DNA of 61,071 nucleotides from a virus (Duplodnaviria; Heunggongvirae; Uroviricota; Caudoviricetes), in the IMG/VR virus record IMGVR_UViG_2778261463_000006, positions 1-61,071 of that record; one strand, written 5' to 3'. A model generated the notes under the pieces. The model was not told where the DNA came from. It was given only the letters and a program-made list of their open reading frames with translations, and searched no databases. The translations under genes and the position numbers were made by a program. Below, piece after piece: positions 19,055-58,677 of this stretch; position 1 is the first letter of the stretch; every line of letters starts with the position of its first letter.

Positions 19055-19071
19055 AATGCTCTAATAAATTT
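19055..19071 (+). promoter_or_regulatory. C1 repressor operator-like site upstream of c4-icd-ant (Op51-like)
   Basis: AATGCTCTAATAAATTT, 16/17 match to recalled P1 C1 operator consensus ATTGCTCTAATAAATTT. Confidence 0.6.
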
Positions 19072-19239
19072 GTATTTTTAAGTCGCGAATGCTATCTTTT
19101 CGCATCATATTGACCTTTTAATCGTTCAGGCTTATAGTTCCGCCGTCGTAGCAAATTCTGCGACCGGGTTTAGCAGCCTGAATGATTGTGCGGACAGCCG
19201 CAGATATCCGATATTGCGGTATTTTTGTGTCCGTAAAAC

Positions 19240-19330
19240 CGCGTTACGCCCAAATTATGGTGGGGCGTGATGGGGAGGCTTCGGCCTGCTGGTTTCACAA
19301 TCGCCAGTCTGCTAACCCCGTCACGTCCTG
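19240..19330 (+). ncRNA. c4: c4-like antisense RNA of immunity region immI (boundaries approximate)
   Basis: Contains cacaatc (19296-19302) and ctgctaa (19309-19315), complementary to direct repeats gtttagcagc/tgattgtg at 19168-19190 and 19337-19374; the latter abuts the icd Shine-Dalgarno. Confidence 0.45.
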
Positions 19331-19385
19331 CCACCTGTTTAGCAGCGGGTAGCAGGTTGTTAAACCTGATTGTGAGGCCGTAACT

Positions 19386-19607
19386 ATGGTTAATGCCAAT
19401 CCTTGCGCACGCCAAGAATTCATCTGGCGTTTCTATTCCTGTAAAAAACACCACTATCACTTCGTTATCGCAGCAACAGAAGACGAAGCACGCTCTCAAT
19501 TGCCTGATGGCCCCTGCATTTTTACTGCCCGTTTTTCAACTAACTCGCGCAATTCACTTAGTTACTGGAACCTCCCCTTCTCTGCCGACGTTCAGGGGGG
19601 TTTATGA
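19386..19607 (+). CDS. icd: Icd-like small protein (73 aa) translationally coupled to ant
   Basis: 73-aa ORF whose stop overlaps ant start (ATGA); target repeats of c4 cover its RBS. Confidence 0.6.
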   Translation: MVNANPCARQEFIWRFYSCKKHHYHFVIAATEDEARSQLPDGPCIFTARFSTNSRNSLSYWNLPFSADVQGGL

Positions 19608-20647
19608 AAAAACCTCTCGTCACCCGTAATGACATAGCCGAAGCGATCGCCCTGCATACTGCCTGTATGTCGACACGGGAGATCCCCGGCGCAATTGCCA
19701 ACTATTTCATGATAACCAGACGTTTTTATACCCGAACAGATAAGGCTGTGATCAACAAGCTACTGATAGCCGAGATCAGGGATTATTTGATTGAACAAGG
19801 ACGTCTACGTTACGCAACAGTGGCAGCAGAAATGAGAAAGGAGGCACATAGAATGACCGGTAATAATTTAAATGTTGAAAAACCAGCACCTGTTGCTTCA
19901 GCTACGCCAGCACCAGCCGTGAATATCATCCCCAACACCGGAGACACAATCGACAGCCTGACACTGTTAAAGATGGTCAATGAAGCGCGTAAGTTATGTG
20001 GGGAACCAGAGGTTCGGAACAACAAATTCATCGAAAAAATACTCGACGAATTAGAAGGTGAGGACGGTTACACAAAAAGTGCAACCGTGCCGCCAGGTGG
20101 CGGTACGCCTATGGTTGTCATAACCATGACCTACAAACAAGCCCTGCGAGTCGCCGCACGCGAATCAAAAGCCGTCCGCCGTTCGCTGATCGACAAACTG
20201 GAAGAATTGCAGCAGGCAAACTCCCCTGCCCCATCGATCCCCCAAACATTACCAGAAGCTCTACGCCTGGCTGCCGAGTTGGCAGAACAGAAAATGCAGC
20301 TGGAACAACAGCTGGTGGCCGCAGCCCCTAAAGTCGATTTTGCCGACCGGGTATCAGTGGCCAATGGAATCCTGATCGGGAACTTTGCAAAGGTCGTTGG
20401 ACTTAAGCAAAACGCCCTTTTCTCATGGTTGCGCCAGAACGGCATTCTCATGGCTTTTGGTGCGCGCAAAAACGTACCGCGCCAGCAGTACATTAACGCC
20501 GGGTATTTCACGGTGAAAGAAGTGGTGCTGGATGATGAAAATGGCTACCAGATACGGCTGACGCCCCAATTAACGGGTAAAGGCCAGCAGTGGTTAACTC
20601 GCAAGCTACTTGATGCTGGTTTGTTAAAACCAGTAGCAATAGGTTAA
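19604..20647 (+). CDS. ant: Antirepressor Ant (347 aa) with KilA-C/ANT-type C-terminal domain
   Basis: C-terminal ~150 aa paralogous to KilA C-terminus (LPEALRLAAELAEQK...TGKGQQWL...LLDAG). Confidence 0.75.
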   Translation: MKKPLVTRNDIAEAIALHTACMSTREIPGAIANYFMITRRFYTRTDKAVINKLLIAEIRDYLIEQGRLRYATVAAEMRKEAHRMTGNNLNVEKPAPVASATPAPAVNIIPNTGDTIDSLTLLKMVNEARKLCGEPEVRNNKFIEKILDELEGEDGYTKSATVPPGGGTPMVVITMTYKQALRVAARESKAVRRSLIDKLEELQQANSPAPSIPQTLPEALRLAAELAEQKMQLEQQLVAAAPKVDFADRVSVANGILIGNFAKVVGLKQNALFSWLRQNGILMAFGARKNVPRQQYINAGYFTVKEVVLDDENGYQIRLTPQLTGKGQQWLTRKLLDAGLLKPVAIG

Positions 20648-20660
20648 CAAAAGAAAAAAA

Positions 20661-20686
20661 CCTGCCAGCAAACTGGCAGGTTTCTG
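20661..20686 (+). terminator. Rho-independent terminator after ant
   Basis: cctgccagca-aactggcagg hairpin followed by TTTCT; A-run before it. Confidence 0.65.
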
Positions 20687-20725
20687 AGCAGATCGACCAA
20701 CCCGATCTGGATCGAGTTAGAAAAA

Positions 20726-20742
20726 TTTGCTCTAATAAATTT
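20726..20742 (+). promoter_or_regulatory. C1 operator-like site upstream of kilA (Op53-like)
   Basis: TTTGCTCTAATAAATTT, 16/17 to consensus. Confidence 0.65.
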
Positions 20743-20811
20743 CGTTTTCTAAGTGCAAAGAATCACCATTTCGAGCTGGTGATTGAAGGTTGATGCAAAT
20801 TTGGAGAAAAA

Positions 20812-21612
20812 ATGCAACAAACATTCAATGCGGATATGAATATATCAAACCTTCATCAAAATGTCGATCCTTCAACCACTCTGCCCGTTATTTGTGGTGT
20901 TGAAATTACGACCGACCGCGCTGGCCGTTACAACCTTAATGCTCTACACAGAGCGAGCGGACTCGGTGCCCATAAAGCGCCAGCTCAATGGCTAAGAACG
21001 CTGTCAGCTAAACAGCTCATCGAAGAGCTTGAAAAAGAAACTATGCAGAATTGCATAGTTTCGTTCGAAGGCCGTGGCGGCGGCACTTTTGCCCATGAAT
21101 TGCTCGCAGTGGAGTACGCTGGTTGGATTTCTCCCGCGTTTCGGCTGAAGGTAAACCAGACATTTATCGACTATCGAGCCGGAAGATTACAACCTGCTAT
21201 TCCGCAGAGTCTCCCTGAAGCTCTCCGTTTGGCTGCCGACCTGGCAGAGCAAAAGCAACGGCTGGAACAAAAAATGCTTATGGATGCACCTAAAGTCGAA
21301 TTCGCCGAACGCGTTGCTACCGCCAGCGGGGTTCTAATCGGCAACTATGCCAAAGTGCTCGGTCTGGGCCAAAACTATCTCTTCACCTGGTTGCGTGATA
21401 ACGGAATTCTGATCGCAACCGGTGAACGCAGGAACGTCCCCAAACAAGAATACATATCCCGTGGGTATTTCACCCTTAAAGAAACCGTGATCGATACAAG
21501 CAATGGAAGCAGGATTTCTTTCACGACTCGTATAACCGGCAAAGGTCAGCAGTGGCTGATGAAGCGATTGCTTGATGCTGGTGTGCTGGTACCTGTCGCG
21601 GCAACGCGCTAA
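20812..21612 (+). CDS. kilA: KilA (KilA-N domain plus antirepressor-like C-terminal domain)
   Basis: N-terminal KilA-N-like segment RYNLNALHRASGLGAHKAPAQWLR; C-terminus paralogous to Ant. Confidence 0.75.
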   Translation: MQQTFNADMNISNLHQNVDPSTTLPVICGVEITTDRAGRYNLNALHRASGLGAHKAPAQWLRTLSAKQLIEELEKETMQNCIVSFEGRGGGTFAHELLAVEYAGWISPAFRLKVNQTFIDYRAGRLQPAIPQSLPEALRLAADLAEQKQRLEQKMLMDAPKVEFAERVATASGVLIGNYAKVLGLGQNYLFTWLRDNGILIATGERRNVPKQEYISRGYFTLKETVIDTSNGSRISFTTRITGKGQQWLMKRLLDAGVLVPVAATR

Positions 21613-21641
21613 CAGACGTAGTAAGAACCACCAGCATTGTA

Positions 21642-22487
21642 ATGCTGGCTAAAGTCACTTTCCTGAGCTGTATAACGATGAGCGATTTTACTTTTTCTGG
21701 CTATGAATTGGCCTGCTTTGTAACACACTCCGGTCTATCCCGTAGCGCCGGGCATATCCTGTCGCAATGTGCAAATCTCGCGGCAACAACCAGTGAATAC
21801 TTCATTCACAAGCCTCACCGCCTGATCGCGGCAGAAACTGGTTATAGCCAATCAACCGTCGTTCGTGCATTCCGTGAAGCTGTAAACAAAGGAATTCTGT
21901 CTGTAGAGATTGTTATCGGCGATCACCGTGAACGTCGCGCTAACCTGTACCGGTTTACACCATCCTTTTTGGCCTTCGCACAACAAGCCAAAAATGCGCT
22001 GATTGAAAGCAAATTAAAGATCTCTTCAGCGGCAACCAAGGTTAAAGCTGTTCTCGCTAAGACATTGGCTTTATTTAATTTTTTATCCACACCCCCATGT
22101 CAAAATGATACCCCCTCCCCCTGTCAGGATGACGTGGCAATAAAGAATAAGAAGTCACAAGTTAAAAAAACAAAAAGATCAGTTTCCGGCGGTGCCGGAA
22201 CGACCAGACTCAAAAAATTGACTTCATGGATCGCTGAGGCAAAAGCAAAGGCTGACAATCTGCGGTTATCCAAAAAACGCGCTCAAAAACATGAGTTCAA
22301 GCAGAAAGTAGAGGCGGCAGCGCGGAAATATGCTTACCTGAAGAACAAGCGTTCTCCTGATATTGGCGGGGTATCAAACTTCGATAATCTGCCGCATTGC
22401 ATGACGGTAAACGAAGCTCTTAATGCGGTTTTAGCCAAAAATAAAGATAACGAACAATGGGGTATACCGGCAGGATTCAGAGGGTGA
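21642..22487 (+). CDS. repL: RepL-like lytic replication initiator (281 aa)
   Basis: 281-aa ORF directly downstream of kilA, basic central region; assignment by P1 kilA-repL synteny. Confidence 0.6.
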   Translation: MLAKVTFLSCITMSDFTFSGYELACFVTHSGLSRSAGHILSQCANLAATTSEYFIHKPHRLIAAETGYSQSTVVRAFREAVNKGILSVEIVIGDHRERRANLYRFTPSFLAFAQQAKNALIESKLKISSAATKVKAVLAKTLALFNFLSTPPCQNDTPSPCQDDVAIKNKKSQVKKTKRSVSGGAGTTRLKKLTSWIAEAKAKADNLRLSKKRAQKHEFKQKVEAAARKYAYLKNKRSPDIGGVSNFDNLPHCMTVNEALNAVLAKNKDNEQWGIPAGFRG

Positions 22488-22537
22488 TAGATTGCTCTAA
22501 TCTGGAGTCACCTGGCGTTTTCAGTTTGAGGTCGGAG

Positions 22538-22783
22538 ATGCAATCTGATTTTTTACAGTTAGCGATCGCTTTTGCAGGATATGTTTGTATTGGCTTCTGT
22601 GTATACATGATCAGCCGAAAAATGCTTGTCGATATCGACCGCAAAGAACGAGCAGAGGAGATCTTAGTATGGATTTTCTTTGGCGCGGTCTGGCCATTAG
22701 GGATCATGTTTGCTGCAACATTTCTTCTGATGTGGATATTCACCCTTCCAGGTGATTTCTATAGAAAAAAAGCCAGACATTGA
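22538..22783 (+). CDS. Small membrane protein (about 81 aa from internal Met)
   Basis: Two hydrophobic segments; ORF track extends to 22457 overlapping repL. Confidence 0.4.
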   Translation: MQSDFLQLAIAFAGYVCIGFCVYMISRKMLVDIDRKERAEEILVWIFFGAVWPLGIMFAATFLLMWIFTLPGDFYRKKARH

Positions 22784-22965
22784 TACACCCGCTGCGGTGT
22801 GCTTGAGGCTATCTGCTTCAGGCATTCCCCGAAAAGCAGATAGAAGAAAGCCCCAGTAAACATTATGCGTCCCGCACAACGCTTAACATTAACCGGGGCC
22901 ATACCTATGCTTAGCATACGTAGATTAACCCTCTCCCCTTTTAAGGAGCAAGGAATTTTTTACTG

Positions 22966-23598
22966 CTATGCCGCCTTTCCAGTTATGGATTCTGCGACAA
23001 GAACAACCCCATGCTTACTTCGATCCGGATGTTCACTCCATATCTCGGATTCAGGAATACTTTTCCCGTCATAGCAAACACGTTCGCCGTCAAACGGGTA
23101 ATACTGAGCAGCATCGGTGTCGAGGATAAACACTTTTAGCTCGGAAGAGCGACGGGCGATATGTTGCCAAAGAGCTTTTCCACCTTCGTATTGCTCATTA
23201 TCACTGAGCAAAACAACACCAGCTTTTGAGGCTACGGTTTCGTAAACAAAAGTAGCTAAACCGACATCCCGGACAGTTCCATCAACCACGATACCTTCAA
23301 TCTGGCCAACATCGCTATCCTCCCAGAACTTCCTTACCAGTACGCCTTCAAGCTGCGGGCGACGTTGAAGTTCAAGAGTAGCGACAACCTTATGCCGCAT
23401 ATCACCATCGATAACAGAAGGCGCAGCCTCTATTACAGCTGCAAATGGGGTTTTGGAATCCCATATAACCTGGTAAAGCACACCCTGGATGGTAACTCCG
23501 TCCAGGATCGAAAATCGACGAGCGACAGTACCCGGGGAGTACGACATTGGAATCACAGCCATTTTAGAGTCCCCCTTTAACAGTACAGGCACAAACAT
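22966..23598 (-). CDS. Hypothetical protein (about 198-210 aa)
   Basis: Clean ORF; C1 operator-like site in its upstream region. Confidence 0.5.
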   Translation of the reverse strand: MFVPVLLKGDSKMAVIPMSYSPGTVARRFSILDGVTIQGVLYQVIWDSKTPFAAVIEAAPSVIDGDMRHKVVATLELQRRPQLEGVLVRKFWEDSDVGQIEGIVVDGTVRDVGLATFVYETVASKAGVVLLSDNEQYEGGKALWQHIARRSSELKVFILDTDAAQYYPFDGERVCYDGKSIPESEIWSEHPDRSKHGVVLVAESITGKAA

Positions 23599-23625
23599 CT
23601 ACCTCAATAATTGTAGTTTATTAGA

Positions 23626-23642
23626 ACATTAATAATCTAACA
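23626..23642 (-). promoter_or_regulatory. C1 operator-like site (minus orientation) upstream of 22966-23598 gene
   Basis: Reverse complement AATGTTCTAATAAACTA, about 14/17 to consensus. Confidence 0.4.
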
Positions 23643-23733
23643 TAAAACTCCAGACAATGTTATCGATGCATTTTTATATAAAATAGTTATAAAAAAAGCT
23701 CCCGAAGGAGCTTTAAAATACAAGGGATGGCTC

Positions 23734-24243
23734 TTAATCCCAATCAATCCAGTTGTAGACGATACGAAGTGACGGGCGCACAGCGGCAGTCACATCTTCG
23801 GTACTAAAGTCGATTGCATCACTGTAGATTTTGCAGTCCAACATTTCAATTGTTGTAGCAGCTTTAGTCACAGCGTTAACCCCGGAAGATTTGGATTCAG
23901 GGGTCGCAGCCATCGTGATATCAACATAGTCCTTCGCCGCAATGCGATCCTTAATGAACTGAAGAATATCGCCTTCGATAGTCTCCACGCACTGGACCTG
24001 GATTTCCCCAGAGTTTCGAATTGGACCGTGCTGGTTGAACTTCACACCATTCGGACCATAGTCCTCCACATCCTCGCGGGTCATTTCAGGAATTTGCGAC
24101 GTGCGAACCAGTACGCTGATATCTTCATGGCCTGCAAAAGTGAGCTGGAATTCAGAAGATACCAGTCGTTCGCCTTTGGCCGCGTTGGCAGTATAGCGGC
24201 CCTTAATAAATTTACGGTTTCCCTTAGTGTTATTGTGCCCCAT
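23734..24243 (-). CDS. Tail tube-like protein candidate (169 aa)
   Basis: Size and C-terminal character resemble myovirus tube proteins; not verified. Confidence 0.4.
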   Translation of the reverse strand: MGHNNTKGNRKFIKGRYTANAAKGERLVSSEFQLTFAGHEDISVLVRTSQIPEMTREDVEDYGPNGVKFNQHGPIRNSGEIQVQCVETIEGDILQFIKDRIAAKDYVDITMAATPESKSSGVNAVTKAATTIEMLDCKIYSDAIDFSTEDVTAAVRPSLRIVYNWIDWD

Positions 24244-24254
24244 ATAAAATCCTT

Positions 24255-24836
24255 TTACTGGAACGCCCGAACAATATCGGAGCTGTTATATATCGAAGAA
24301 CCGGTCAACTGGAGGTTGACGGTGTTTTTCAGGAAATATCCATTACTGTCCCTTGGCGCATCGAGATCAAAACTTAAGTCCTGGATAGCGACATCGGTGA
24401 TGTTGATCCGGCGACCAATGTTTAGCGTCACACGTTCCGGGATTCGACCACCAACATTGGCCGCTTTTAGTTCCGGGCTAATCATGGCTGTCAACGCGGC
24501 GATAGCGCCTGAAACTTCAATGAATGGATTGTTCAAAGCAATGAAAGTTACGGGCAGCGTGAACGTCGGCGGTGTCCCCCCTTCCCAAACCATTAAGCTG
24601 TTCCAACGGGCAACCGACGTTGTTTCAGTACCAACCTGCGCAAAACCACTGAAAGCACCAGCAACAGACCCCATGGACATACCGGTAAACGGCGCTTCCC
24701 AATTCTGGGCCATATTCATTGCTGCCCCCTGGCTGATATATCCGGTAACCTGGTACTGAGAGTTCGTTAAAGTAACTTTCAGAAATGGCGATACACCGTC
24801 AGCCTGGCTGTAAACCCCATAAGGTATAGGTGCCAT
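24255..24836 (-). CDS. Structural protein (193 aa)
   Basis: ORF tightly spaced in late structural block. Confidence 0.45.
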   Translation of the reverse strand: MAPIPYGVYSQADGVSPFLKVTLTNSQYQVTGYISQGAAMNMAQNWEAPFTGMSMGSVAGAFSGFAQVGTETTSVARWNSLMVWEGGTPPTFTLPVTFIALNNPFIEVSGAIAALTAMISPELKAANVGGRIPERVTLNIGRRINITDVAIQDLSFDLDAPRDSNGYFLKNTVNLQLTGSSIYNSSDIVRAFQ

Positions 24837-24871
24837 TCAAGTTAAAGGCCGGAGTTCTCCGGCCTCCTCCT

Positions 24872-25687
24872 TTAGCCAAGGCGCTTACGGCGCAGTTTCA
24901 TTGACTTTTTGCGGGCAAGTTTTGCCGCGCCGGTCTGGGCTTTTCGACGCGCTTTTTTCAGCGCCGATTTTTGAGCCGCAGTCAGACGTTTTTTACGCAG
25001 GCGTTTACGGATGAGTTTGATCTCACCGTTACGAACAACCTTCTTAAATGCTTCAGTCAGCATTTCATCAGAAGTGCCAGCTACAACAAACGCCGCTTCC
25101 AGTTCGTCACGGTCGTCGCTATCTAAACCAGCGATAGAGGCACCAACATCAGCTGCTGCGTCGTCGTCTTCATCGTCAGCCAGTGCTTCGATCAGGTCAT
25201 CATCTACACCGCATGCTGCGAGGAAGTCAGCAACATTTGCCCATGCTTCGTTATAGGCATCGTCCTGTTCTTCTGTAACTTCGGCGTCGTCGTCATCAGA
25301 GATACCAGCGATAGCCTGAACGAAACCATCAAGGGAGTCGAAAGTCAGATCACCGCTATCAGCCCAGGCGAAAACGGCGTCGGCCGCATCACTCAACGCA
25401 TTCTGCATAGCACTTCGATTTGCAGCTTCCAGAATCATCTGGTGCGCCTGTTCGACGGTCCATTCTTTACCGTCTTTCCCTTCCAGGATTTGCTCAGGAG
25501 CCGGGGCAGATGGAACGTTATCGTTAGTCTGTGCCGCCGGTTCCGGATTATTATTAATAACCGGATCTGTTGGCGGTTCGGCGCTTGCTCGGGCAGACTC
25601 CATCAGCTGCACAGGATCAGAGTTCAAAGCGAAACGGGACAGTCCATTCCCCAAAAATGCCCCGGATTGAAAAAAGTTTTTGCTCAT
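24872..25687 (-). CDS. Acidic protein with strongly basic C-terminal tail (271 aa), possible scaffold/internal protein
   Basis: Central D/E-rich tract and C-terminal K/R-rich 50 aa. Confidence 0.5.
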   Translation of the reverse strand: MSKNFFQSGAFLGNGLSRFALNSDPVQLMESARASAEPPTDPVINNNPEPAAQTNDNVPSAPAPEQILEGKDGKEWTVEQAHQMILEAANRSAMQNALSDAADAVFAWADSGDLTFDSLDGFVQAIAGISDDDDAEVTEEQDDAYNEAWANVADFLAACGVDDDLIEALADDEDDDAAADVGASIAGLDSDDRDELEAAFVVAGTSDEMLTEAFKKVVRNGEIKLIRKRLRKKRLTAAQKSALKKARRKAQTGAAKLARKKSMKLRRKRLG

Positions 25688-25696
25688 TGTATTCCC

Positions 25697-27286
25697 TTAC
25701 TTAATAAGCAGCGGTACGCCCTGGATACGACGGGCTACGCCAGTCGGGCAGCAGGCCCAGACTACTTCCCATTTATCGAATTCCGCCTGCGTAACTTTCA
25801 GCACATACGGTTCTGTACCGTCAGCATCAGGATCACGAGGAGCCACCAGAGCGCCGGAGGCGACAAAGCGATCTAAAAGTTTGGTCATCCCTTTAGTCAG
25901 GCCAGCCGCAGTAATACCGTCCGGGCTATGCTTCATCTGTCGGGCTAACTGGACAAAGAAACGGCTGATTGCATTCATCAGGGATGGGACGTGCTGGAAG
26001 TGCAGATAGTTATCCTGCGTGCAGCAAGTTAAAGCATCGTCGATGATCATCTGGCCAGAGGTGCCAACAGATACTTTATTGAGACGGCCCTTGACCATTG
26101 CTTCTTCGTCCGGGGTATCTTCCGGATACAGCGGTTGAATTGACGCACGAGCAATGACGGCACGTTCTTCACCAGCCGGTGAGTAATGCCAACCGCCGAC
26201 ATCAGAGTTTTTCTTGACGCCGCGAGCTTTCGCCGCATACGCCGCGCCAGACAGACCGAAGACCACACGGGATTGGGTCCATTTGTCTTTGCAGGAGAAC
26301 GGGAAGTGATAGACAGCACAGCTTACATAATCGGTACCAAGTAAACCGGTATCTTCAACAGCAGAGATCGCTTCCGTGTACGTCAATGTCGGTTTGACAT
26401 CAAAGAAGCCATCAATCAGGCGATCTGCACAGATTTTACCTAATGCGGTGATAGCCGCATTGTCATAGCAGCCCAGGCCAAGAACAGCGGTGTACATGTA
26501 CGGCGCATTATTCAGCACTTTAACCGCACGTAGGTACGCAGCGGTTGAGATTTTCGACTGATCACCGTTGGTACCACCAGTGAACGCCAGCGATTTTTTA
26601 TTTGTTACTTTCGCCGTCGAAATCAGCTCTTCATTAACAACCGCGCGCAGATATTTAGAACGGGCTTCCAGAGCCGTAGGCAGATAACACAAGCGGCCCA
26701 TGTCATCTTTCGCTTCTTCCGCCAAAGATACAGTGTGTGTCTCCAGGGTCGTTACCACGCCGAGCGAAGTCGTCTGGGTCAGTTTTAAGAGGAAGCGTTC
26801 ATTACCCGCGCTATCCGCTGTTGCCGTTTCGATGGTTAACTCACGGGTAGGTGAAATACACGGATCACCATCATCAACGTAGATAGCAAAGGCTTCGCCA
26901 CTATCAAGTTCAATTTCAGAACCGTATGGCAACGCACTGTAAGCCGGTTCGCCTGATTCATCGAACATAATAATCGGGAACTTCGCATCATCCGGAACAG
27001 CACGAACAACATAACCAGACGTTTGCTGAATAGCTTCGTACACATGACGAATTGGTTCGAACTGTGAGCCGGAAGACGGCTTCAGCGGTTCGCCGAGAAC
27101 ATCTTCGTAATTGGACTCAGTAACCGCCAGAACAGTAAACGGCTTGCCACGCGCAAATACGCCAATACCAGCCCACAAGCTGCTATTTAATGCAACACCG
27201 GTAGATAACGTCGCATCGGCATTGATCGGGCTAACCGCGACGCCGGATGCATTACCTAATGACTGTTGAATTGAATATTGAGACAT
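25697..27286 (-). CDS. Tail sheath protein candidate (P1 gp22-like, 529 aa)
   Basis: Large ORF directly downstream of capsid gene; assignment by size and P1 order 22-23-parS. Confidence 0.5.
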   Translation of the reverse strand: MSQYSIQQSLGNASGVAVSPINADATLSTGVALNSSLWAGIGVFARGKPFTVLAVTESNYEDVLGEPLKPSSGSQFEPIRHVYEAIQQTSGYVVRAVPDDAKFPIIMFDESGEPAYSALPYGSEIELDSGEAFAIYVDDGDPCISPTRELTIETATADSAGNERFLLKLTQTTSLGVVTTLETHTVSLAEEAKDDMGRLCYLPTALEARSKYLRAVVNEELISTAKVTNKKSLAFTGGTNGDQSKISTAAYLRAVKVLNNAPYMYTAVLGLGCYDNAAITALGKICADRLIDGFFDVKPTLTYTEAISAVEDTGLLGTDYVSCAVYHFPFSCKDKWTQSRVVFGLSGAAYAAKARGVKKNSDVGGWHYSPAGEERAVIARASIQPLYPEDTPDEEAMVKGRLNKVSVGTSGQMIIDDALTCCTQDNYLHFQHVPSLMNAISRFFVQLARQMKHSPDGITAAGLTKGMTKLLDRFVASGALVAPRDPDADGTEPYVLKVTQAEFDKWEVVWACCPTGVARRIQGVPLLIK

Positions 27287-27346
27287 AACTTTCCCTGTTA
27301 TGCGCCCCGCACGGGGGCGCTATGTTAAACGGAGAACTTCCCCTGA

Positions 27347-29074: not shown

Positions 29075-29190
29075 GGCACTTGTGTGAATCCCTTTTCGGA
29101 AGAGATTTTATTGAAAGTCACTTGTTGACTTTCTCGTGACAAGCAATTTTTTTATTTTTTCGGGAGGAGGGGAGGAAGGTAAAATCCAAG

Positions 29191-29274
29191 GTGAAATCGT
29201 GGCGATTTCACCTTGAAATTTTAGAGTAATTTACTTTAAAAACAGTCAGTTAATAGTGAAATTTGAATGGCGAA
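29191..29274. other. parS: parS partition (centromere) site
   Basis: Heptamer boxes GTGAAAT/ATTTCAC and hexamer TGGCGA on both arms flanking an AT-rich IHF-like core; downstream of parB. Confidence 0.65.
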
Positions 29275-29277
29275 AGT

Positions 29278-30279: not shown

Positions 30280-30295
30280 GGGGGTTTCTTACTCC

Positions 30296-31492: not shown

Positions 31493-31630
31493 CGAAAGTC
31501 ATCCTTTATGCTGTATTTTTGAGTTTAATTAAAAATGCTGCATAAAATAATAATGTATGCGTAGATGCTTGTACATAGCATTCTCTGCATGTTTGGTTCA
31601 TTTTGCACGATTGAGAGTTACAAGGAGGGC

Positions 31631-31653
31631 ACAAAAAAGCCCCGTTCAGGGGC
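31631..31653 (-). terminator. Rho-independent terminator after the T5orf172-like gene (minus strand)
   Basis: gcccc-gttca-ggggc hairpin with A-run on plus strand (T-run on minus). Confidence 0.55.
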
Positions 31654-31660
31654 ATCAGTG

Positions 31661-32470
31661 TTATTTGCTAAGAGCAGCGAATAATCGTTCGAAATCGATA
31701 GTATCTATAGCACGCGTAAGCGCCGGAAGTTCAGCCTCAAAGTACCCGTGTCGATCGTAAAAGAAGGGACCGAAGAGCGAGGCATGTTGGATTCTACTTC
31801 GCCCCAGCCCGGACACACAGTTAAGCCCATTACCGGCTAAAAGGCTAAAAAACTTCTCTGGATTATCGTGGTAAAGCTGGGAATCAATGGTGGCGGTTAA
31901 CTCTTCCATAGGGAAGCACACCCGCCCTGTATCCCAGGGATATTTAGTCCGAAGCATAAACATTGCTTTCAGCAATTCACATTGAGCGCGGATCGCGTCC
32001 GGTTCATAGCCAGATATGGAGACATAAGCCACGTCCCTCATTCCTGCGTCATCTTTGAAAGTCACGATAGAAGTAACATCCAGCTCTTTTTCGAAAGAGC
32101 AAGCAGCATCTACTGGACGCTGAAGTAAATCATTCGACTTAATGCGCTCGAGAATCCCTCCCCACATATCATTTAGATATTCGATATGAGCCAAAACCTT
32201 ATCAAGACACTCTCGTGTAAACCATTCAGTATGCCCGCCACCGACGCTTTTCTCCCACGGCGCATTCCAGGGGAAAAAGGTTGCGTGTAAAGCCCGCTCA
32301 AGATTAACCATTGCCAAACGCGTACCACGATAGACCCGTGAAAGCGCAAAATCGGGACTCACTTGTAGCCCTTTAAACCGTGCCAATGGACCACATGAAA
32401 TGCCGATTTTAAAAGTATCTCCGTTCTCTGGCACCAGAACGTAGAGGTAGTGTTGTTTCTCTTCTTGCAT
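31661..32470 (-). CDS. T5orf172 / GIY-YIG-like domain protein (269 aa), accessory insertion between parA and incA
   Basis: N-terminus YLYVLVPENGDTFKIGIS...RFKGL...GGGHTEWF fits T5orf172-type motif; C-terminal domain unassigned. Confidence 0.6.
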   Translation of the reverse strand: MQEEKQHYLYVLVPENGDTFKIGISCGPLARFKGLQVSPDFALSRVYRGTRLAMVNLERALHATFFPWNAPWEKSVGGGHTEWFTRECLDKVLAHIEYLNDMWGGILERIKSNDLLQRPVDAACSFEKELDVTSIVTFKDDAGMRDVAYVSISGYEPDAIRAQCELLKAMFMLRTKYPWDTGRVCFPMEELTATIDSQLYHDNPEKFFSLLAGNGLNCVSGLGRSRIQHASLFGPFFYDRHGYFEAELPALTRAIDTIDFERLFAALSK

Positions 32471-32504
32471 ATCAATACCACTGCTTGATGAGAACCGCGC
32501 AAAT

Positions 32505-32761
32505 GTTGACTATGCGCGAAGGTTAATGTGAATAGTTGACTATGCGCGATGTGACTACAGTCAAAAGTTGACTGTAGTCGATTTAACTCCACCAAAGATC
32601 GACTATGTAAGATATTGTCGGGAGAAACGTTGACTATACGCGATGAAATGCCCCTAAAAGCCATCTCAATAGCGACTTGCAGAATATTGACGCCAGCAAA
32701 AATCCACCAGCGTCAACGAATGTCGCCTATAGTCAACTTCTCGCTATCGCATATAGTCAAT
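32505..32761. repeat. incA: incA iteron array (about 8-9 RepA-binding repeats in both orientations)
   Basis: Repeats of GTTGACTATGCGCGA and inverse TCGCCTATAGTCAAC / TCGCATATAGTCAAT immediately downstream of repA. Confidence 0.7.
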
Positions 32762-32762
32762 A

Positions 32763-33683
32763 TTATGGATTGCGCTTATGGATCTGGAAGCCGATTTTCC
32801 TGCCGTTTTTTATCTCTGAAAATTTAAGATATTCAATAGCTTCCAAATCTTTCATGGCTTTTCTGATAACGCTATTTTGCACGCTAACGGATGATTTGAG
32901 ATTAAGCCTCGCTCTAAGGCGCTCAATGCTGACAGGTGCCGGGTTGGCGGGTAGAGCCTCAAAGAATGTATACAGTACCTTGGCCGTCTCTTTGCGCCCT
33001 AGTTTATCCAGCATCTTCAGCTTCAGGATTCGCTTATAGTCAACATAGTAAAGTTCAGATAGCTGTTTCTGCGGCTGGATCTCGATAACATCAAGCTCGG
33101 TATTCAGGCTGCTATATGCCAACAAGTTGACGTTAATGTTATTGAGATGACCTTTTGCCGCCGGGAAGCGGAATTTGACAACTGTCTGCTGAATGCGTGT
33201 CAGAGAGTCATCAATACTTTTACGGAACGCCTTTGAAAGGCGCTTACGTGGATAGCCGCATCGATCGGCAAACTCGGAGAATGGCAGGGTGATTATGCCG
33301 TCATCATCAGGTGCGTAGTCAAACAACGCGGAAGTTATGCCCACCCACACCTTAAAATCAGTATCCATATCCAGGCGTGGACCATGAATTTCAATTCCCT
33401 CATAGCCTTCCTGCTCAACAATTTTGAGGCTTGATAGTTCTTCAGTTGCGTTCGTTGTGTTTGTTGTAACTGACGATCCGCGACGTAGCGCCACATTGGT
33501 AGATTTTAAGGTTGGCACAAACACACCTAAGCGCAACAAAGCGATGGGTTGTATAGTGCTGTTGTTATTGGGCTTCAGGCTGTGGATTTCTCCTGTATTT
33601 CCTGCAACTTCTTCAACGCTAAGGAAGCCTTTACTTTCTTCCGGCATCACGGTTTCTCCATGTGTGGCGCGGCCTGACGTCAA
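32763..33683 (-). CDS. repA: Plasmid replication initiator RepA (start probably at 33647)
   Basis: Rep protein flanked by iterons on both sides; RepFIB/P1 RepA-like. Confidence 0.85.
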   Translation of the reverse strand: MTSGRATHGETVMPEESKGFLSVEEVAGNTGEIHSLKPNNNSTIQPIALLRLGVFVPTLKSTNVALRRGSSVTTNTTNATEELSSLKIVEQEGYEGIEIHGPRLDMDTDFKVWVGITSALFDYAPDDDGIITLPFSEFADRCGYPRKRLSKAFRKSIDDSLTRIQQTVVKFRFPAAKGHLNNINVNLLAYSSLNTELDVIEIQPQKQLSELYYVDYKRILKLKMLDKLGRKETAKVLYTFFEALPANPAPVSIERLRARLNLKSSVSVQNSVIRKAMKDLEAIEYLKFSEIKNGRKIGFQIHKRNP

Positions 33684-33724
33684 TTTGGATGGCTGTTATC
33701 AACAGCTGTGAATATTCAGACTCT

Positions 33725-33935
33725 AAAATCGCGTACAGTCAATGTTTCTGTCGCGTATAGTCAACAATAAATCGCGTGCAGTCAACAATAAATCGTGCAC
33801 AGTCAACATAAAATCGCGTATAGTCAATGTTGATCCCATTTCAGGCCAGTAATGACGCGGCTTACAGCGATCCGGGATCTTCTTTGGATCTTCCTAGGTT
33901 CTCTTTAGGATCTGTTTATTGGATCTATGCTGTGG
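33725..33935. other. oriR: incC iterons (5), GATC-rich AT-rich region and DnaA box
   Basis: Five ~21-bp spaced iterons TCGCGTATAGTCAA-like at 33726-33832; six GATC sites 33836-33915; DnaA box TGTGGATAA at 33921-33929. Confidence 0.7.
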
Positions 33936-33982
33936 ATAAGTTGAATAAACCGGCCAACAAAGCCGGTTGGAAGGAAGTCATA

Positions 33983-34375
33983 TTATTCTACGCTTTCGAT
34001 AAGAAGACCATGTTCATAACATTTAAGCTCATCGCCTTCATACAGGAATTGGTATCCAACACCACCATCTTCATGGACATTAGGGAATAACTCATAACTC
34101 ACTGAAGAGCAAATCACACCAATGCAGCGATCAACTCCTTCTCGTTCTTCAGTGCTGAAAAAATCCTCTTCGGTAAGAACATGAGTACATTGCTCATCAG
34201 CATAGGTCGGAAATACATGCTCAATGCAATCCGGGTGTTTTAAACCAAGCTGATCGGCAAGCTCGAAAGCACGACGGTATTGTTCAGATCCTGGCTTGCC
34301 AACAGTGATTTGCTCAATTTTGTAGATTGAAGTCGCTTTGTTGATAGTTTGCTTTACTGTTACTTTATCAGACAT
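33983..34375 (-). CDS. UpfA-like hypothetical protein (130 aa)
   Basis: ORF upstream of oriR; P1 synteny. Confidence 0.5.
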   Translation of the reverse strand: MSDKVTVKQTINKATSIYKIEQITVGKPGSEQYRRAFELADQLGLKHPDCIEHVFPTYADEQCTHVLTEEDFFSTEEREGVDRCIGVICSSVSYELFPNVHEDGGVGYQFLYEGDELKCYEHGLLIESVE

Positions 34376-36177: not shown

Positions 36178-36194
36178 ATTGCTCTAATAAATAT
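36178..36194 (+). promoter_or_regulatory. C1 operator-like site upstream of uhr-hrdC-dmt
   Basis: ATTGCTCTAATAAATAT, 16/17. Confidence 0.65.
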
Positions 36195-36265
36195 TGTTTT
36201 TTATGTCGTATTTTCGGTACCATTCAGCCATCGCCCTTCAATGGGCATTTGTTTGGAGTCGTCAG

Positions 36266-36550
36266 ATGCAGATGGAGCTAATAAGCCGCAAAGAGTTCGA
36301 TAGCCGTGTAACCAGCGGTGAACTCGACAACTTGCAGGCTATCAAGGTGAAAGAAGGCTTTTGCCTCATTGGGAATCAGAGCGGAACAAATCGCGTTTTT
36401 ATGCTTCGCCGTACGGATTTGAAGCCATTTGTCTGGAAGAACGAAATTGGTCCCAGCTCATACGCTCAAACGAGGGGGTGCCACAACCTGGCCTTTTTCT
36501 ACAAAGACGAGCTTTCTGTGGTTGATATTCAAGGGTTACAACATGTTTAA
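36266..36550 (+). CDS. Uhr-like small protein (about 94 aa)
   Basis: ORF with GGAG RBS before ATG at 36266; stop overlaps hrdC start. Confidence 0.45.
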
Positions 36551-50375: not shown

Positions 50376-50954
50376 ATGTTGCGCTTTACTGAGGAAGAGT
50401 TTCAGGCTTTTAGTGAGCGTCGAAATAAGGGGCGGTCCAGGCCAAAAACCAAAAAGGATCCATTCTTATCGCTTGCGCCGGTAAAAGAAGTTTCTCCACA
50501 TGCGAAGGCACTTGCAGCACTGGCAAAGAACCCAGACCTGCGCGACGGAAATTGCGAGCACTTCGAGCAGGTTTTCATTTTTGATTACTTCGAACGCAAG
50601 CACCCTGACATCTATGAGCTGTTGCATGCAACGCCTAACGGAGGGAAGCGTTCAAAAGCAACCGCCGGGAAAATGAAGGCTTAAGGGCAGAAAAAAGGTT
50701 ATCCGGACATGAGTCTCGATAAAGCATGCGGTATTTATCACGGCATGCGAATTGAGCTTAAAGAACCAAATGGTAAAGCCCCGACGAAAGAGCAGATCGC
50801 CTGGATGCGCAGGCTTAGAGAGGAAGGCTACTACGTTGTTCTTGCGTATGGTGCAGAACAAGCGATTACCGCCATCCTGGAATACATAAGTCTTAAAAAG
50901 GGTGAGGCTATCGAGCATGTATTGAACGGCGATAAGTGGTTGCATATTGCTTAA
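50376..50954 (+). pseudogene. VRR-NUC-type nuclease gene interrupted by a single in-frame TAA stop (50682-50684)
   Basis: Same frame reads ...HATPNGGKRSKATAGKMKA*GQKKGYPDMSLDKACGIYHGMRIELKEPNGKAPTKEQIAWMRRL...; both halves match VRR-NUC motif. Confidence 0.5.
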
Positions 50955-51150
50955 AATAATAAATTAATTAGTGCATATACGCTCTTTGTGATAGTGCACT
51001 TTAACATCGGGAGAATAATCGTGTCATCCAAGGTTAATTATGAGTCGCTGGCATCGGTCATGCCGCGTAATGAACAGGAAACAGATGCTGTAGTGGACCC
51101 TGTAATCGCTGAAATGAATGCTCGCCTGGAGGCTGAATTTGCAGCTGAGA

Positions 51151-51780
51151 ATGAACATACCACCCAGGGCGACTAGGACTGTTTTTTGTGTCGGTAGCGG
51201 TCCGTCACTCACTCGTGAGGACTGTGCTGCTATAGAAAAAACTGGCTGTTCAATCATCGCGGTTAACAATTCCTGGCAGATGTTCGATGACATTTATGCC
51301 TTATACGCCGGTGATTTGTCATGGTGGAAGCAATACGGATCCACCATACCGGGAGGGAGATTCCGCAAAGTGACAGCCAACCTGGCGGCGGCGAAATCAT
51401 TTTCGTTGGAGTACAGGCGATATTGTGGACCGGCGGAAGGGGTAAATAGCGGCGCGCAGGCTATCAGTCTGGCTGCTGAATCAGGGGCTGAAGTAGTGGT
51501 ATTAGTCGGCTATGACTGTTCTCTGCAAAACGGCCTTCATTGGCATGGCGCGCACCCTCAAGCACTACGGAATCCAACGCAGGTGTCTATTTCAAAATGG
51601 CAACAGCAGTTCCTGGATACCCGCAAAAAACACGCAGATTTACATATTTTGAATGCAAGTAGGAGCAGTGCAATTCAATGTTTCCCAAGAATAAATTTAG
51701 AGGCAGTGATCGCGTTATTATCGTCGGCAGTGGCCCAAGCGCCGCAAACTTTGTTGCGCCGCGCGGAGTGCCGATTATAG
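51151..51780 (+). CDS. MptE/DUF115-like protein (GSGPS motif), paralog 1
   Basis: Motif FCVGSGPSLT...SIIAVNNS; start uncertain (51118 or 51151). Confidence 0.45.
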   Translation: MNIPPRATRTVFCVGSGPSLTREDCAAIEKTGCSIIAVNNSWQMFDDIYALYAGDLSWWKQYGSTIPGGRFRKVTANLAAAKSFSLEYRRYCGPAEGVNSGAQAISLAAESGAEVVVLVGYDCSLQNGLHWHGAHPQALRNPTQVSISKWQQQFLDTRKKHADLHILNASRSSAIQCFPRINLEAVIALLSSAVAQAPQTLLRRAECRL

Positions 51781-52304
51781 CGGTCAATGGGGCCATCGAC
51801 TGGCTTAACCGCGCTTCTTATTTTTTCACCCTTGATCCATCCCCAGACAATATGCGGCGCGTTGGTCGTGGCCGCCGTCGCCGTGGTGTTTGTTATTGCA
51901 TGGCACTACCCGATGTTAAAGAACGTGAAGTCAGAGATGGCGTTCTGTGCTTCCGTCGTGTGGCTGAACGCGGCATGGAGCCAAAAAATACGAATTCTCC
52001 CGAGTGGTGGGCGTGGCGCTGGTCCGCACATTTCGGCCTTTGCGAAGATGAGAATGAAATTGCCAGCGGCAATAGTGCATATGGTGCTCTGAACCTGGCT
52101 TTCCATATCGGATTCAAACATGTAGCTCTGGTGGGCGTTGACGCTACGCAAGAACTACGCGTTCACTCCGGCGGCACGCCAAAAAATCTAAGTCACCTGC
52201 CTTTGTTATTCCAGTCTGCGCGTGAACAGATTGACGTTGTTTCATGCGGGAAAATGGGAGGTATTCCGCAGATGACTCTTAAAGAATGGCTGAAGAATAC
52301 ATGA
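51678..52304 (+). CDS. MptE/DUF115-like protein (GSGPS motif), paralog 2
   Basis: Motif [12 protein letters not shown]...PIIAVNGA; paralogous to upstream gene. Confidence 0.5.
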
Positions 52305-52978
52305 TGGCACCCACAATTTATCACCGTATCGACGGTACCAAATACAGGAATGTCTGGGTTGTTGGTGATCTGCATGGTTGCTACACCAGACTGATGTCCG
52401 AACTCCATCGTGTGGATTTTGACCCGGCGCAGGATTTACTGATATCGGTCGGCGACCTTATCGATCGCGGTACTGAAAATGTCGAATGTCTGGAACTATT
52501 GCAGATGCCCTGGTTCAGGGCAGTGATGGGGAACCATGAGCGGCTGATGATTGATGCGTTAAGTCCAGATGGCAACGTGAATAACTGGCTAATGAATGGC
52601 GGACAATGGTTCTTCATGCTGGACACTGATCAGGAAATATTAGCCTGGGCGCTGGTGGAGCTGGTAAAGCATCTGCCCTATATCATTGAGTTGAACACCG
52701 GGCAAGAAACTATCGTTATAGCCCATGCCGACTATCCGGATAATGAATACCAATTCGGTAAGGAGGTGCCGCTTTTCAACGTTGTCTGGGCGCGCGAGCG
52801 TATCAGTGATTCGATGGATGATATTGGTGGCGAAATTTCGGGCGCAGATCGTTTTATCTTTGGTCACACTCCGGTGAAAAGCCCGAAGACATTCTGGAAT
52901 CAGCAGTATATCGACACTGGTGCCGTATTTTGCGGAAACCTGACATTGATGAAAGTGAAAGGTGATGGTGCAGCATGA
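52286..52978 (+). CDS. ppp: Ser/Thr protein phosphatase (PPP/calcineurin-like metallophosphatase; P1 ppp)
   Basis: Motifs GDLHG, GDLIDRG, GNHE. Confidence 0.8.
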
Positions 52979-53676
52979 AGATTGCTTTAGTTTTTCGCTC
53001 TGGTGGTGACTATAACGCTTCCGATGTGCAGTGGCTGGTTAATCAACTGCCAAAAGGCTATGAAATTATTTGCCTGACAGACCTGAAGCGTTTACATGTA
53101 CCTGGCGTCAAAGTTGTCCCATTGATCAACCAGTGGCAAAAGTGCCGTGGCTGGTGGGCGAAAATAGAGTTGTTCCGACCGGATATAACCGATGATCTGT
53201 TCTATCTGGATTTGGACACGGTTATTGCCGGTGATATACGCCCAATCCTAGAGCATCCACCAACCAGCTTCACCATGCTTAGGGATTTTTACCATCCACA
53301 ATATCGTGGCAGCGGTGCCCTGTGGATACCAAATAGTGTAAAAGCGCATATCTGGAGTGCATTCTGGCAAGATCCGGAAGGTTGGATTGCTCGTTGTGTT
53401 ACTACTGAATGCTGGGGTGATCAGGGGTTTTTGCGGAAGGTTATGGGTGATGATACACCAGCATTTCAGGATCTGTATCCGGGATGGTTTGTAAGTTACA
53501 AGGCCGATGTTGTGGAACCTGGTTCGAAATATGCGAGCGCGCGTTACTCCAGGGGGAATGGGGCATTACCAAAAGACTGCCGAATAATCTTTTTCCACGG
53601 CAAACCGCGACCTCGCGAAGTGTCAGAGGATTGGCTTCCCCTTATCAGCTCATTTTTTGAGCGAGAATCAGAATAA
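52975..53676 (+). CDS. Glycosyltransferase-like protein with DxD motif (233 aa)
   Basis: FYLDLDTVI DxD-type motif after Rossmann-like N-terminus MKIALVF. Confidence 0.45.
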
Positions 53677-53677
53677 T

Positions 53678-53694
53678 ATTGCTCTAATAATTCC
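53678..53694 (+). promoter_or_regulatory. Degenerate C1 operator-like site
   Basis: ATTGCTCTAATAATTCC, 14/17. Confidence 0.4.
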
Positions 53695-53703
53695 ATATTT
53701 TTA

Positions 53704-53732
53704 AAACGTGATGTACACTCATCACGTTTTTT
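53704..53732 (+). terminator. Rho-independent terminator
   Basis: acgtgatg-tacactc-catcacgt followed by TTTTTT. Confidence 0.65.
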
Positions 53733-53743
53733 ATTAGAGCAAT
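53727..53743 (-). promoter_or_regulatory. C1 operator-like site (minus orientation)
   Basis: Reverse complement ATTGCTCTAATAAAAAA, first 14 of 17 match. Confidence 0.5.
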
Positions 53744-53977
53744 CTACAAGGTGCACTATGTGGCCATTCCGACGGAAATATCACTACTGGCTGATCGCCT
53801 TTGTTACGCCGACCGGCGGTATCAGGCATGTCATCACCAGGTATCGCAACAAGAGACTCACCTTAGCCAGAATTTTACAGGCTGCCATAGGTGAGGGACT
53901 GGATACAAATTGCGTAGTCCTTCCACCTTCATACTTAGGAAAAATGACCGAAGCACAAGCTAATACGGAACTTTGAA

Positions 53978-55240
53978 ATGAGCACTTCAGCACAAAACCA
54001 ATCAATCGAAAATGTATCTATCCCTGATGTCCTGAATGCCGGTATCCCGGCCATTATCCAGAACATCCGGGCCGCGCAACGCCGCGTTAGTTGTGATGAC
54101 CTCACAGCACGTTTTTTTGATAATGCGGTTCAGTCAGCGGAGATGCTTCACGCACAGCTTATTGATGTTTATAACGCAGAAGCTGATAGCCATAACTCCC
54201 TGGTCGATGCAGCTGAAAATATGCAGTTGGATCTCGGTCTGAAGGGTAAAGAAATTGAAGAGCTTCAGCTGCAAATTGAACATTTGAAACGCCAGCAACA
54301 GGACGCGATCGACGATGCGACGCATGACGCCAACCAGCGTGCTGATAATGCCGAACGTATAAGCATTGAGCTGGAAACAAAACTCAATGAAATGACCGCG
54401 ATGGTTGAACTGCGGAACTCACAGATTTCAACGCTAAAATCTCAATATAAAGAGATCATGAAACTTGATCCTTTTAACCTTGAGAAACGCTATAACAAAG
54501 CTAAAAGCGAGCGACAGGAACTGCGTAAGCAGGTCGCCGACCTTAACCAACAGCTCAAAAAAACTATTAAAGATGCAAGCGAAGCGCGCGTGGCATTTGC
54601 TAATAAAAAAGCAGAGGTTACCGCGCTGGTTAATGAGAATGCCAAATTTGCGACGCTCAAGAAGGAAATGTATGGCATTACTGAGCGCCGTTTCCCTGCA
54701 AGCAAACTTCACCCGACGTTAGGGCAAATCTCCTTCTTCCCGCGCCTCCTGGCTTATGGGATCTCATCGCCTAAAGAGTTCAATAACGAGCGTCCTTATA
54801 TCGTTTCTAAGCTGGACTTTGCTTATCAGTTCTGCTGCGACATGGGCTATGCCATTGATATCCGGATCAACGAATGGTTGATGCCAAACTTCCAGCCGTT
54901 GGCCATTTTCCGCGAGTTCCAGCCGGAAGGTTGGGTAGAGTTCTTCCATGAATTGATCTGTAAAGAGATGGAAAGCCGCCGCCCGGAACTGGTCCGTCGA
55001 GTTGAGTGGGCGCAAGAGGTTATGTTGGCAGATGCAGAGCTGCCGTTCAAACCGGAATTCATTGATGATCTGGCAACTAAAGGGCTGCATACCCTGTTTG
55101 ATGTGGTTACCCGCCGTCATGAGCAGTTGGTTGTCGAATTGAGTTTAGAGGAAACTGCGGCAAGAAGACTTCTCGATGTTTGCTATGCACGTAGCGATGC
55201 ATGGGAAAAAGAGAACGGCGGCACTATTTACGTTCGCTGA
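53978..55240 (+). CDS. Large coiled-coil protein (420 aa)
   Basis: N-terminal half coiled-coil (E/K/Q-rich), C-terminal globular domain. Confidence 0.5.
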   Translation: MSTSAQNQSIENVSIPDVLNAGIPAIIQNIRAAQRRVSCDDLTARFFDNAVQSAEMLHAQLIDVYNAEADSHNSLVDAAENMQLDLGLKGKEIEELQLQIEHLKRQQQDAIDDATHDANQRADNAERISIELETKLNEMTAMVELRNSQISTLKSQYKEIMKLDPFNLEKRYNKAKSERQELRKQVADLNQQLKKTIKDASEARVAFANKKAEVTALVNENAKFATLKKEMYGITERRFPASKLHPTLGQISFFPRLLAYGISSPKEFNNERPYIVSKLDFAYQFCCDMGYAIDIRINEWLMPNFQPLAIFREFQPEGWVEFFHELICKEMESRRPELVRRVEWAQEVMLADAELPFKPEFIDDLATKGLHTLFDVVTRRHEQLVVELSLEETAARRLLDVCYARSDAWEKENGGTIYVR

Positions 55241-55313
55241 TAGTTACAGTGTCACTTTTAATGCTGGTGGAGTGCGTCCCACCAGCATTTTTTTCGTCCA
55301 ATGAGGAGGGCAT

Positions 55314-55820
55314 TTGAGTATTTTCAATAAACACGCACACCAGGAACGTCCGTATATCGTCATAGTCGATATTGATGGAACAATATCGGAGGCAACGGAA
55401 GACAGACTGCATTTGCTTCCGCCACCAGGTAAAGGTGCATTAACAAAGGACTGGAACGAGTTTAATCTCGCCTGTGACACTGATACTCCCATAACTCCAG
55501 TTATTGATATTGTGCGCCAGTTATTTAACGTTTACACGGTCTGGTTTGTAACCGGGCGCTGTGAGATCGCAAGGGATAAAACACGAGCTTGGCTGCGGAA
55601 GTACGTAACAAACGGGGCTGAGCCTTTGCTATCTATGCGCCCTGCCACCGATGACAGAAATGACGGCCCAGCAAAGATTGATCTCCTTAAGAAAATTGGT
55701 CTAAGTAAAATTGCGTTCGCGCTGGAAGATAAGATTGAAGTGGCGCGTGTTTTCAGGAGACACGGCGTGCTTACGTTAATGGTCAGGGAGTATGAAAATG
55801 CGCTTCTTCATCAGCAGTAA
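55314..55820 (+). CDS. pap: HAD-superfamily phosphatase (P1 pap-like)
   Basis: HAD motif I VIVDIDGT near N-terminus; downstream motifs consistent with HAD fold. Confidence 0.6.
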   Translation: MSIFNKHAHQERPYIVIVDIDGTISEATEDRLHLLPPPGKGALTKDWNEFNLACDTDTPITPVIDIVRQLFNVYTVWFVTGRCEIARDKTRAWLRKYVTNGAEPLLSMRPATDDRNDGPAKIDLLKKIGLSKIAFALEDKIEVARVFRRHGVLTLMVREYENALLHQQ

Positions 55821-55836
55821 TTGCTCTAATAAATCT
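55820..55836 (+). promoter_or_regulatory. C1 operator-like site
   Basis: ATTGCTCTAATAAATCT, 16/17. Confidence 0.6.
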
Positions 55837-58676: not shown

Positions 58677-58677
58677 T

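Follow-up and report, generated by a model that had tools for sequence, protein, structure and literature searches.

Do the near-identical 17-bp sequences scattered over one phage-like stretch of DNA form the operator network of a phage P1-type immunity repressor, and if so, has that network changed where the surrounding modules have been exchanged? The stretch is IMG/VR record IMGVR_UViG_2778261463_000006, positions 1 to 61,071, and we use the term window for its whole length of 61,071 nucleotides. A preliminary description made from the sequence had listed dispersed 17-mers matching a common motif at 14 to 17 of 17 positions and had read them as operators of C1, the primary immunity repressor of P1. 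Ten intact 17-mers in the window are very probably operators of a P1-type C1, inherited by descent, and we put the probability of this reading at roughly 0.93. A search with the asymmetric 17-bp consensus ATTGCTCTAATAAATTT at three or fewer mismatches returned nine sites (19055+, 20726+, 36178+, 39454+, 39465-, 50054-, 53678+, 53727- and 55820+), compared with 0.26 ± 0.48 in 100 dinucleotide shuffles of the window. A tenth intact site (50961-; TATGCACTAATTAATTT, 13/17) was found by weight-matrix scanning, and across all ten the match to the consensus ranges from 13 to 17 of 17 positions.

Two matrices were used, one built from all 20 operators annotated in P1 and the other from only the nine P1 operators that lie outside the region homologous to the window (Oref, Omat, Ossb, Olpa and Oc1a-e). 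Both separated the ten sites (17.3-28.1 bits) from everything else in the window (13 bits or less). The second matrix, which is independent of the window's own orthologues, ranked the identical ten sites at the top (17.3-25.9 bits), with the next match at 13.0 bits, leaving a gap of 4 bits. A similar motif density was not seen in unrelated DNA: 50 kb of the E. coli K-12 chromosome contained no site with three or fewer mismatches and a single site with four. One further four-mismatch match in the window, absent from the preliminary list, lies at 14665-14681 (+; ATTGCCCTCTTTAATTT, 13/17), inside a tail gene in the block collinear with the P1 tail and baseplate genes. Its matrix score is 8.1 bits or less, the same 17-mer is present in the relative vB_EcoM-673R5, and it is most likely a chance match.

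The identity of the ten sites was taken from P1 itself, using the 'phage repressor C1' protein_bind features of the reference record AF234172 as the operator set; in that record the older Op names, such as Op51, have given way to new ones, such as Oc4. When the window was aligned to P1, each of the ten sites coincided with one of these features at an exactly orthologous position, and the 17-mers were the same as those of P1 except for a single base, position 1 of Op83 (T here, C in P1). The same asymmetric 17-bp consensus has been reported for P1, in which 22 operators are widely dispersed over the genome (PMC8546580). The sites proposed at 19055, 20726, 36178, 39454, 53678, 53727 and 55820 were thus borne out. 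The two matches described as weaker, at about 50056 and 50961, are also real and correspond to Op82 and Op83, although the first of these (50054) is a strong site, matching at 15 of 17 positions. A minus-strand site at 23626 did not hold: the 17-mer starting there matches at only 8 of 17 positions, and the real match nearby (23614-23630, -; AATGTTCTAATAAACTA, 13/17) is not a P1 operator. We return to it below.

From its sequence, the window is a variant of the P1-like (Punavirus) phage-plasmids that is common among plasmids. A 5-kb piece around the first sites is 96-99% identical to P1-like phages of this genus, and the whole-window alignment is collinear with P1 positions of about 27.5-84.9 kb at 96-99% identity, with a shared content that includes immI, kilA-repL, par, ban and the tail and head genes, as expected of a Punavirus. 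The assignment to a common variant follows from the plasmid replicon block: of the 742 PLSDB plasmid records that matched a 3.5-kb query around it, mostly from E. coli, 365 covered at least 80% of the query length.

Promoter context of the ten operators

To place the sites relative to transcription, we carried promoter positions over from the P1 annotation (AF234172). The annotated -35 or -10 elements overlap or abut 8 of the 10 sites, and the remaining two, Op83 and Op86b, sit just downstream of a -10. The promoter hexamers annotated in P1 are unchanged at 24 of the 26 positions checked. Generic promoter and terminator scans recovered P1c4 and PaskilA and were too crude to confirm the weaker promoters annotated in P1. 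The gene blocks that the preliminary description had placed behind the sites (c4-icd-ant, kilA-repL, uhr-hrdC-dmt, the tRNA/ban operon and early genes) agree with the P1 annotation, in which Op82, Op83, Op86a/b and Op88 precede the early block from pmgL to pmgV.

The leftmost site, Oc4 or Op51 (19055-19071, +; AATGCTCTAATAAATTT, 16/17), corresponds to P1 48140-48156, annotated as 'monovalent C1-controlled operator Oc4'. It shares bases with the -35 of P2c4 (19069-19075), the promoter ahead of c4-icd-ant1/ant2. Downstream of it lie the immI antisense-RNA module (19132-19338, +), comprising an a1/b1 target element (19132-19184) and the C4 antisense RNA (19253-19338), then the icd open reading frame (ORF; 19386-19607, +) and the ant1/ant2 antirepressor ORF (19604-20647, +), whose Ant1 product is 94% identical to P1 Ant1. 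The Rfam matches for the immI module, RF03163 (55.5 bits) and RF01695 (69.6 bits), both exceed the gathering score. OrepL or Op53 (20726-20742, +; TTTGCTCTAATAAATTT, 16/17; P1 49810-49826) covers the -10 of PkilA (20731-20736), for which the TCTAAT of the motif is the annotated hexamer, upstream of kilA (20812-21612) and repL (21642-22487). Odmt or Op68 (36178-36194, +; ATTGCTCTAATAAATAT, 16/17; P1 65145-65161) adjoins the Pdmt -35 (36194-36199), ahead of uhr (ATG at 36266), hrdC and dmt.

The bivalent operator Obanab or Op72ab (39454-39481; P1 68667-68694) consists of Op72a (39454-39470, +; 17/17) and Op72b (39465-39481, -; 15/17), two inverted 17-mers offset by 11 bp and overlapping by 6 bp, in the same geometry as P1 Obanab. 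It covers the -35 of P1ban and the -10 of P2ban, abuts the -10 of P1ban, and heads an operon of tRNA-Asn, tRNA-Tyr, tRNA-Thr and tRNA-Met(CAT) followed by ban (42540-43910). The tRNA-Tyr (GTA; 40219-40305, +), located between tRNA-Asn and tRNA-Thr, is an addition relative to P1, whose operon has only Asn, Thr and Ile2(CAT).

The remaining sites fall in the early block. O26 or Op82 (50054-50070, -; ATTGCACTAATAATTTT, 15/17; P1 78528-78544) sits in the divergent control region of gene 26 and pmgL, where it covers the -10 of P2pmgL and the -35 of P1pmgL. Oppp or Op83 (50961-50977, -), the orthologue of P1 79435-79451, lies between pmgM and pmgN. A weak match of about 11 bits on the opposite strand (50950-50966, +; CTTAAAATAATAAATTA) overlaps it with the 11-bp inverted offset of Op72ab and Op99ab and resembles the weak half of Oc1b, ACGAAAATAATAGATTT; on the basis of this arrangement, Op83 might be bivalent-like.

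Two inverted operators precede pmgR, OpmgRa or Op86a (53678-53694, +; ATTGCTCTAATAATTCC, 14/17; P1 82152-82168) and OpmgRb or Op86b (53727-53743, -; ATTGCTCTAATAAAAAA, 14/17; P1 82201-82217), the latter 15 nt before the pmgR ATG (53758). A hairpin, AAAACGTGATG...CATCACGTTTT (53695-53726), fits exactly between them, with its T-tract formed by the A-run of Op86b. OpmgT or Op88 (55820-55836, +; ATTGCTCTAATAAATCT, 16/17; P1 84293-84309) covers the -35 of P2pmgT and abuts that of P1pmgT. It heads a tightly packed string of plus-strand genes that runs into non-P1 genes (Ead/Ea22-like and DUF551) up to the end of the window. The operon under Op88 therefore differs from that of P1 in continuing into lambdoid ea-type genes instead of pmgU and pmgV.

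Conservation in a distant relative and the repressor circuit

Recurrence of a sequence at promoters could also arise without a repressor. The 17-mer contains a -35-like TTGCTC and a -10-like TCTAAT, and it might be a shared promoter module that recurs through related early promoters and binds no regulatory protein. The use of TTGCTC as the annotated -35 at three promoters (P1ban, PpmgR at Op86a and P2pmgT at Op88), together with that of TCTAAT at PkilA, is in keeping with this explanation. By contrast, the register of the motif varies from promoter to promoter. Some copies cover the -35 or the -10, others lie immediately before the -35 or past the -10 (the latter at Op83 and Op86b), and both orientations occur. 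The P1 record and the literature, moreover, describe the sites as C1 binding sites (PMC8546580).

A distant relative gave a further view of the same question. Cronobacter phage JK004 (MZ188976; G+C content 54%) shows about 67% nucleotide identity across the upfB-uhr-hrdC region, which contains Op68. Among its gene products are a C1 homologue (76% amino-acid identity) and homologues of Lxc and Coi. Its genome has about 19 motif matches of at least 16 bits, including sites upstream of uhr, ban, pmgR, lpa, ssb, ref and the c1 and coi homologues, as well as one just after pap, in the gene string where P1 has pmgT. Op68 and Op86a both have syntenic counterparts in JK004. At six syntenic sites, 86 of 102 operator positions were identical between the window and JK004, compared with 220 of 540 in the ungapped 45-nt flanks. 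The 17-mers are thus conserved far more strongly than their surroundings, a pattern of local constraint that protein-binding sites should show. Because conservation extends over the whole 17 bp, beyond the hexamers, while the flanks diverge, we consider a mere promoter module extremely unlikely and favour C1 operators. JK004 is not a copy of the P1 arrangement: several of its sites have T or AT at positions 4-5, additional sites occur, such as between darB and prt, its record has no operator annotation, and no immI/repL block separates its sim-like genes from bplB. A comparable inverted repeat is present between its two pmgR sites.

Three observations weigh against assigning the ten sites to C1. 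Within the window there is no match to C1, Coi, Lxc or Lpa, so the element's own repressor is not observed directly; two -10 hexamers predicted in P1, those of PpmgN and P2pmgT, differ here; and Op83 matches the consensus at only 13 of 17 positions. The first of these would be explained if, as in P1, the immC region with c1 lay beyond the right end of the window. It also bears on the earlier statement that the sites define the repressor regulon: the C1 operator set is supported, but with c1 and its partners outside the window the sites alone cannot define a regulon.

The absence of c1 from the window, along with the exchange of several modules including the plasmid replicon, leaves room for the operators to be inherited relics in an element whose repressor has been lost or has changed specificity. 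This seems very unlikely to us. The ten sites are unchanged from P1 except for one base, even in intergenic DNA. The lineage-specific allele at the repL junction is shared by the close relative vB_EcoM-673R5, which has c1, coi, lpa and the lxc modulator together with the operators expected outside the window. In addition, E. coli maintains hundreds of related plasmids, which would be difficult if kilA-repL and ant were not repressed.

A functional C1 circuit, as we infer it for this element from P1, would work as follows. C1 made from immC, outside the window, would bind each asymmetric 17-bp site and, as the sites overlap or abut -35 or -10 hexamers, would keep RNA polymerase off the sigma-70 promoters in the lysogen. 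The promoters silenced in this way would be those of c4-icd-ant (antirepressor), kilA-repL (lytic replication), uhr-hrdC-dmt (methyltransferase), the tRNA/ban operon (helicase) and the early block from pmgL to pmgV. At Op72, the two inverted sites with their 6-bp overlap would act as a bivalent operator. The co-repressor Lxc would strengthen repression, and relief would come from Coi or from Ant1/Ant2; Ant synthesis would in turn be limited by C4, the antisense RNA encoded shortly after Op51.

The logic resembles that of phage lambda, in which CI and Cro act at the operators OL and OR and the repressor occludes early lytic promoters to maintain lysogeny. Lambda operators are symmetric, bound by dimers and clustered at two loci; unlike them, the sites in the window are asymmetric and scattered singly over more than 36 kb. 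For P1, the operators have likewise been described as asymmetric and widely dispersed; C1 is reported to repress the expression of RepL and Lpa, Coi and Ant1/Ant2 to inactivate C1, and C4 RNA to repress Ant synthesis, and the role of Lxc alongside C1 is also stated (PMC8546580). In its operator positions in a collinear genome, its 17-mers, its overlap with promoter hexamers and its Op72 geometry, the network of the window is that of P1. JK004 shares with both the same 17-bp motif at syntenic promoters and the homologues of C1, Lxc and Coi. The C1 operator network found here is, in other words, the already known, textbook immunity network of P1.

The replaced segment between repL and bplB

One P1 operator is not intact. 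Homology to P1 stops at position 22501, inside Orlf or Op55 (22491-22507, +), which is truncated after position 11 and reads ATTGCTCTAAT|CTGGAG, so that only the left 11 bases remain; a 1.2-kb foreign module (non-P1 block 22501-23692) takes the place of rlfA, rlfB and pmgF. The remnant, which the preliminary description did not list, contains no full 17-bp match and scores between -0.1 and 2.7 bits across the matrices, a range in which 45-82 matches are expected per 61 kb. Because it scores as noise on every matrix, Op55 is, judged from its sequence, effectively lost together with rlfA and rlfB. The same truncated allele is present in RCS47 and vB_EcoM-673R5, and the sub-lineage with the swapped repL-bplB module accounts for about 125 of 664 matching plasmid records.

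The foreign module has several features of its own. A small, very hydrophobic ORF of 81 amino acids (22538-22783, +; phrog_3772, unknown function) starts 47 nt after the Op55 remnant, in place of rlfA/rlfB. It is followed by a match to the Rfam sok antitoxin family (22797-22970, +; RF01794, 72.9 bits). No Hok-like ORF follows the sok match, and a convergent gene encoding 198 amino acids ends at 22966; the match may represent the remains of a hok/sok system, and 'MokW' is annotated at this position in a related P1 record. The convergent gene (22966-23562, -) belongs to phrog_7522, of unknown function; its product had no Pfam match, and PHROGs returned only families of unknown function.

Upstream of this gene, 52 nt from its start, lies the 13/17 match noted above (23614-23630, -), just after the bplB terminator and directly upstream of a -10-like hexamer, TACAAT (23608-23613), which is kept as TATAAT in some divergent homologues. 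We regard a real C1 operator at this site as possible but less likely than not; more probably, an AT-rich promoter region resembles the motif by chance, leaving the 198-amino-acid gene outside the C1 regulon. Its four mismatches include a C to T change at position 5 that occurs in no P1 operator, and the P1-only matrix scores it at 11.9 bits, a level at which 1.35 matches are expected per 61 kb. Four-mismatch sites also arise elsewhere, at 14665 inside a tail gene and once in the 50 kb of E. coli DNA. JK004 nevertheless has T at position 5 in several sites, including one upstream of its lpa homologue, and with a matrix combining P1 and JK004 operators the candidate rises to 15.4 bits, with 0.12 matches expected by chance per 61 kb. 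Its placement immediately upstream of the conserved TACAAT also favours an operator, as does the bplB terminator just upstream, because of which a promoter is needed at this point.

Comparison with relatives favours neither reading. Divergent homologues of the 198-amino-acid gene (76-89% amino-acid identity) have no such site upstream, as a chance match would predict; these homologues, however, have non-P1 surroundings, with neither bplB nor repL next to them, and the missing site is therefore uninformative about C1 control. Closer relatives (4 phages, 30 IMG/VR records and 125 plasmids) are essentially identical across the intergenic region, an invariance that gives footprinting no power. A JK004 site at 13242, beside bplB, was considered as the equivalent of the candidate and rejected. 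Its neighbour, jk14, is a homologue of the sim-region gene at 18311-18985 of the window, and JK004 has no immI/repL block there; the JK004 site thus corresponds to the Op51 side.

If the candidate were a working operator, a single module swap between repL and bplB would have rewired the C1 regulon, halving Op55, removing rlfA and rlfB, and placing the acquired phrog_7522 gene under a lineage-specific operator at 23614-23630. We consider this unlikely on present sequence comparisons. Were it true, the module would be bracketed by inverted left halves of operators (ATTGCTCTAAT...ATTAGAACATT), hinting that operators can serve as junctions for mosaic exchange.

Other exchanged modules and the lysogeny circuit

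Alignment to AF234172 delimited further non-P1 blocks in the window, at 1-644, 4923-8273, 17776-18819, 31594-33845, 41092-42181, 43920-44209 and 56398-61071. The second contains cin and the tail-fibre segment: the homologue of the cin recombinase lies in inverted orientation, with an identity to P1 cin of only about 70%, and the invertible tail-fibre segment is mostly unlike that of P1. In the sim region, two genes of unknown function (17783-18985, -; phrog_3429 and phrog_3933) stand in place of the P1 sim superimmunity genes; their homologues adjoin bplB in JK004, with the immI/repL block absent at that position. The block at 31594-33845 is the plasmid replicon, where a RepB-family initiator and a GIY-YIG nuclease gene replace the P1 repA/incA replicon. 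After Op88 and a shortened pmgT, the last block (56398-61071) holds the tight plus-strand string of small genes that includes Ead/Ea22-like and DUF551 members, a set shared with Shiga toxin (Stx)-converting lambdoid phages. Across the non-P1 modules (replicon, tail-fibre, sim, tci and ea-type), the matrix scans found no site above background except the candidate at 23614.

The main value of the operator set is that it confirms the P1-like phage-plasmid origin of this element and a lysogeny circuit wired as in P1, which is useful for annotation. As the sites mark early promoters, they would also indicate the accessory genes kept silent during lysogeny, among them the tRNA-Tyr added to the ban operon and the ea-type genes after Op88. 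Any new biology here may be confined to small-scale rewiring of the regulon, with Op55 lost and one operator possibly gained in a sub-lineage that is common among P1-like plasmids of E. coli.

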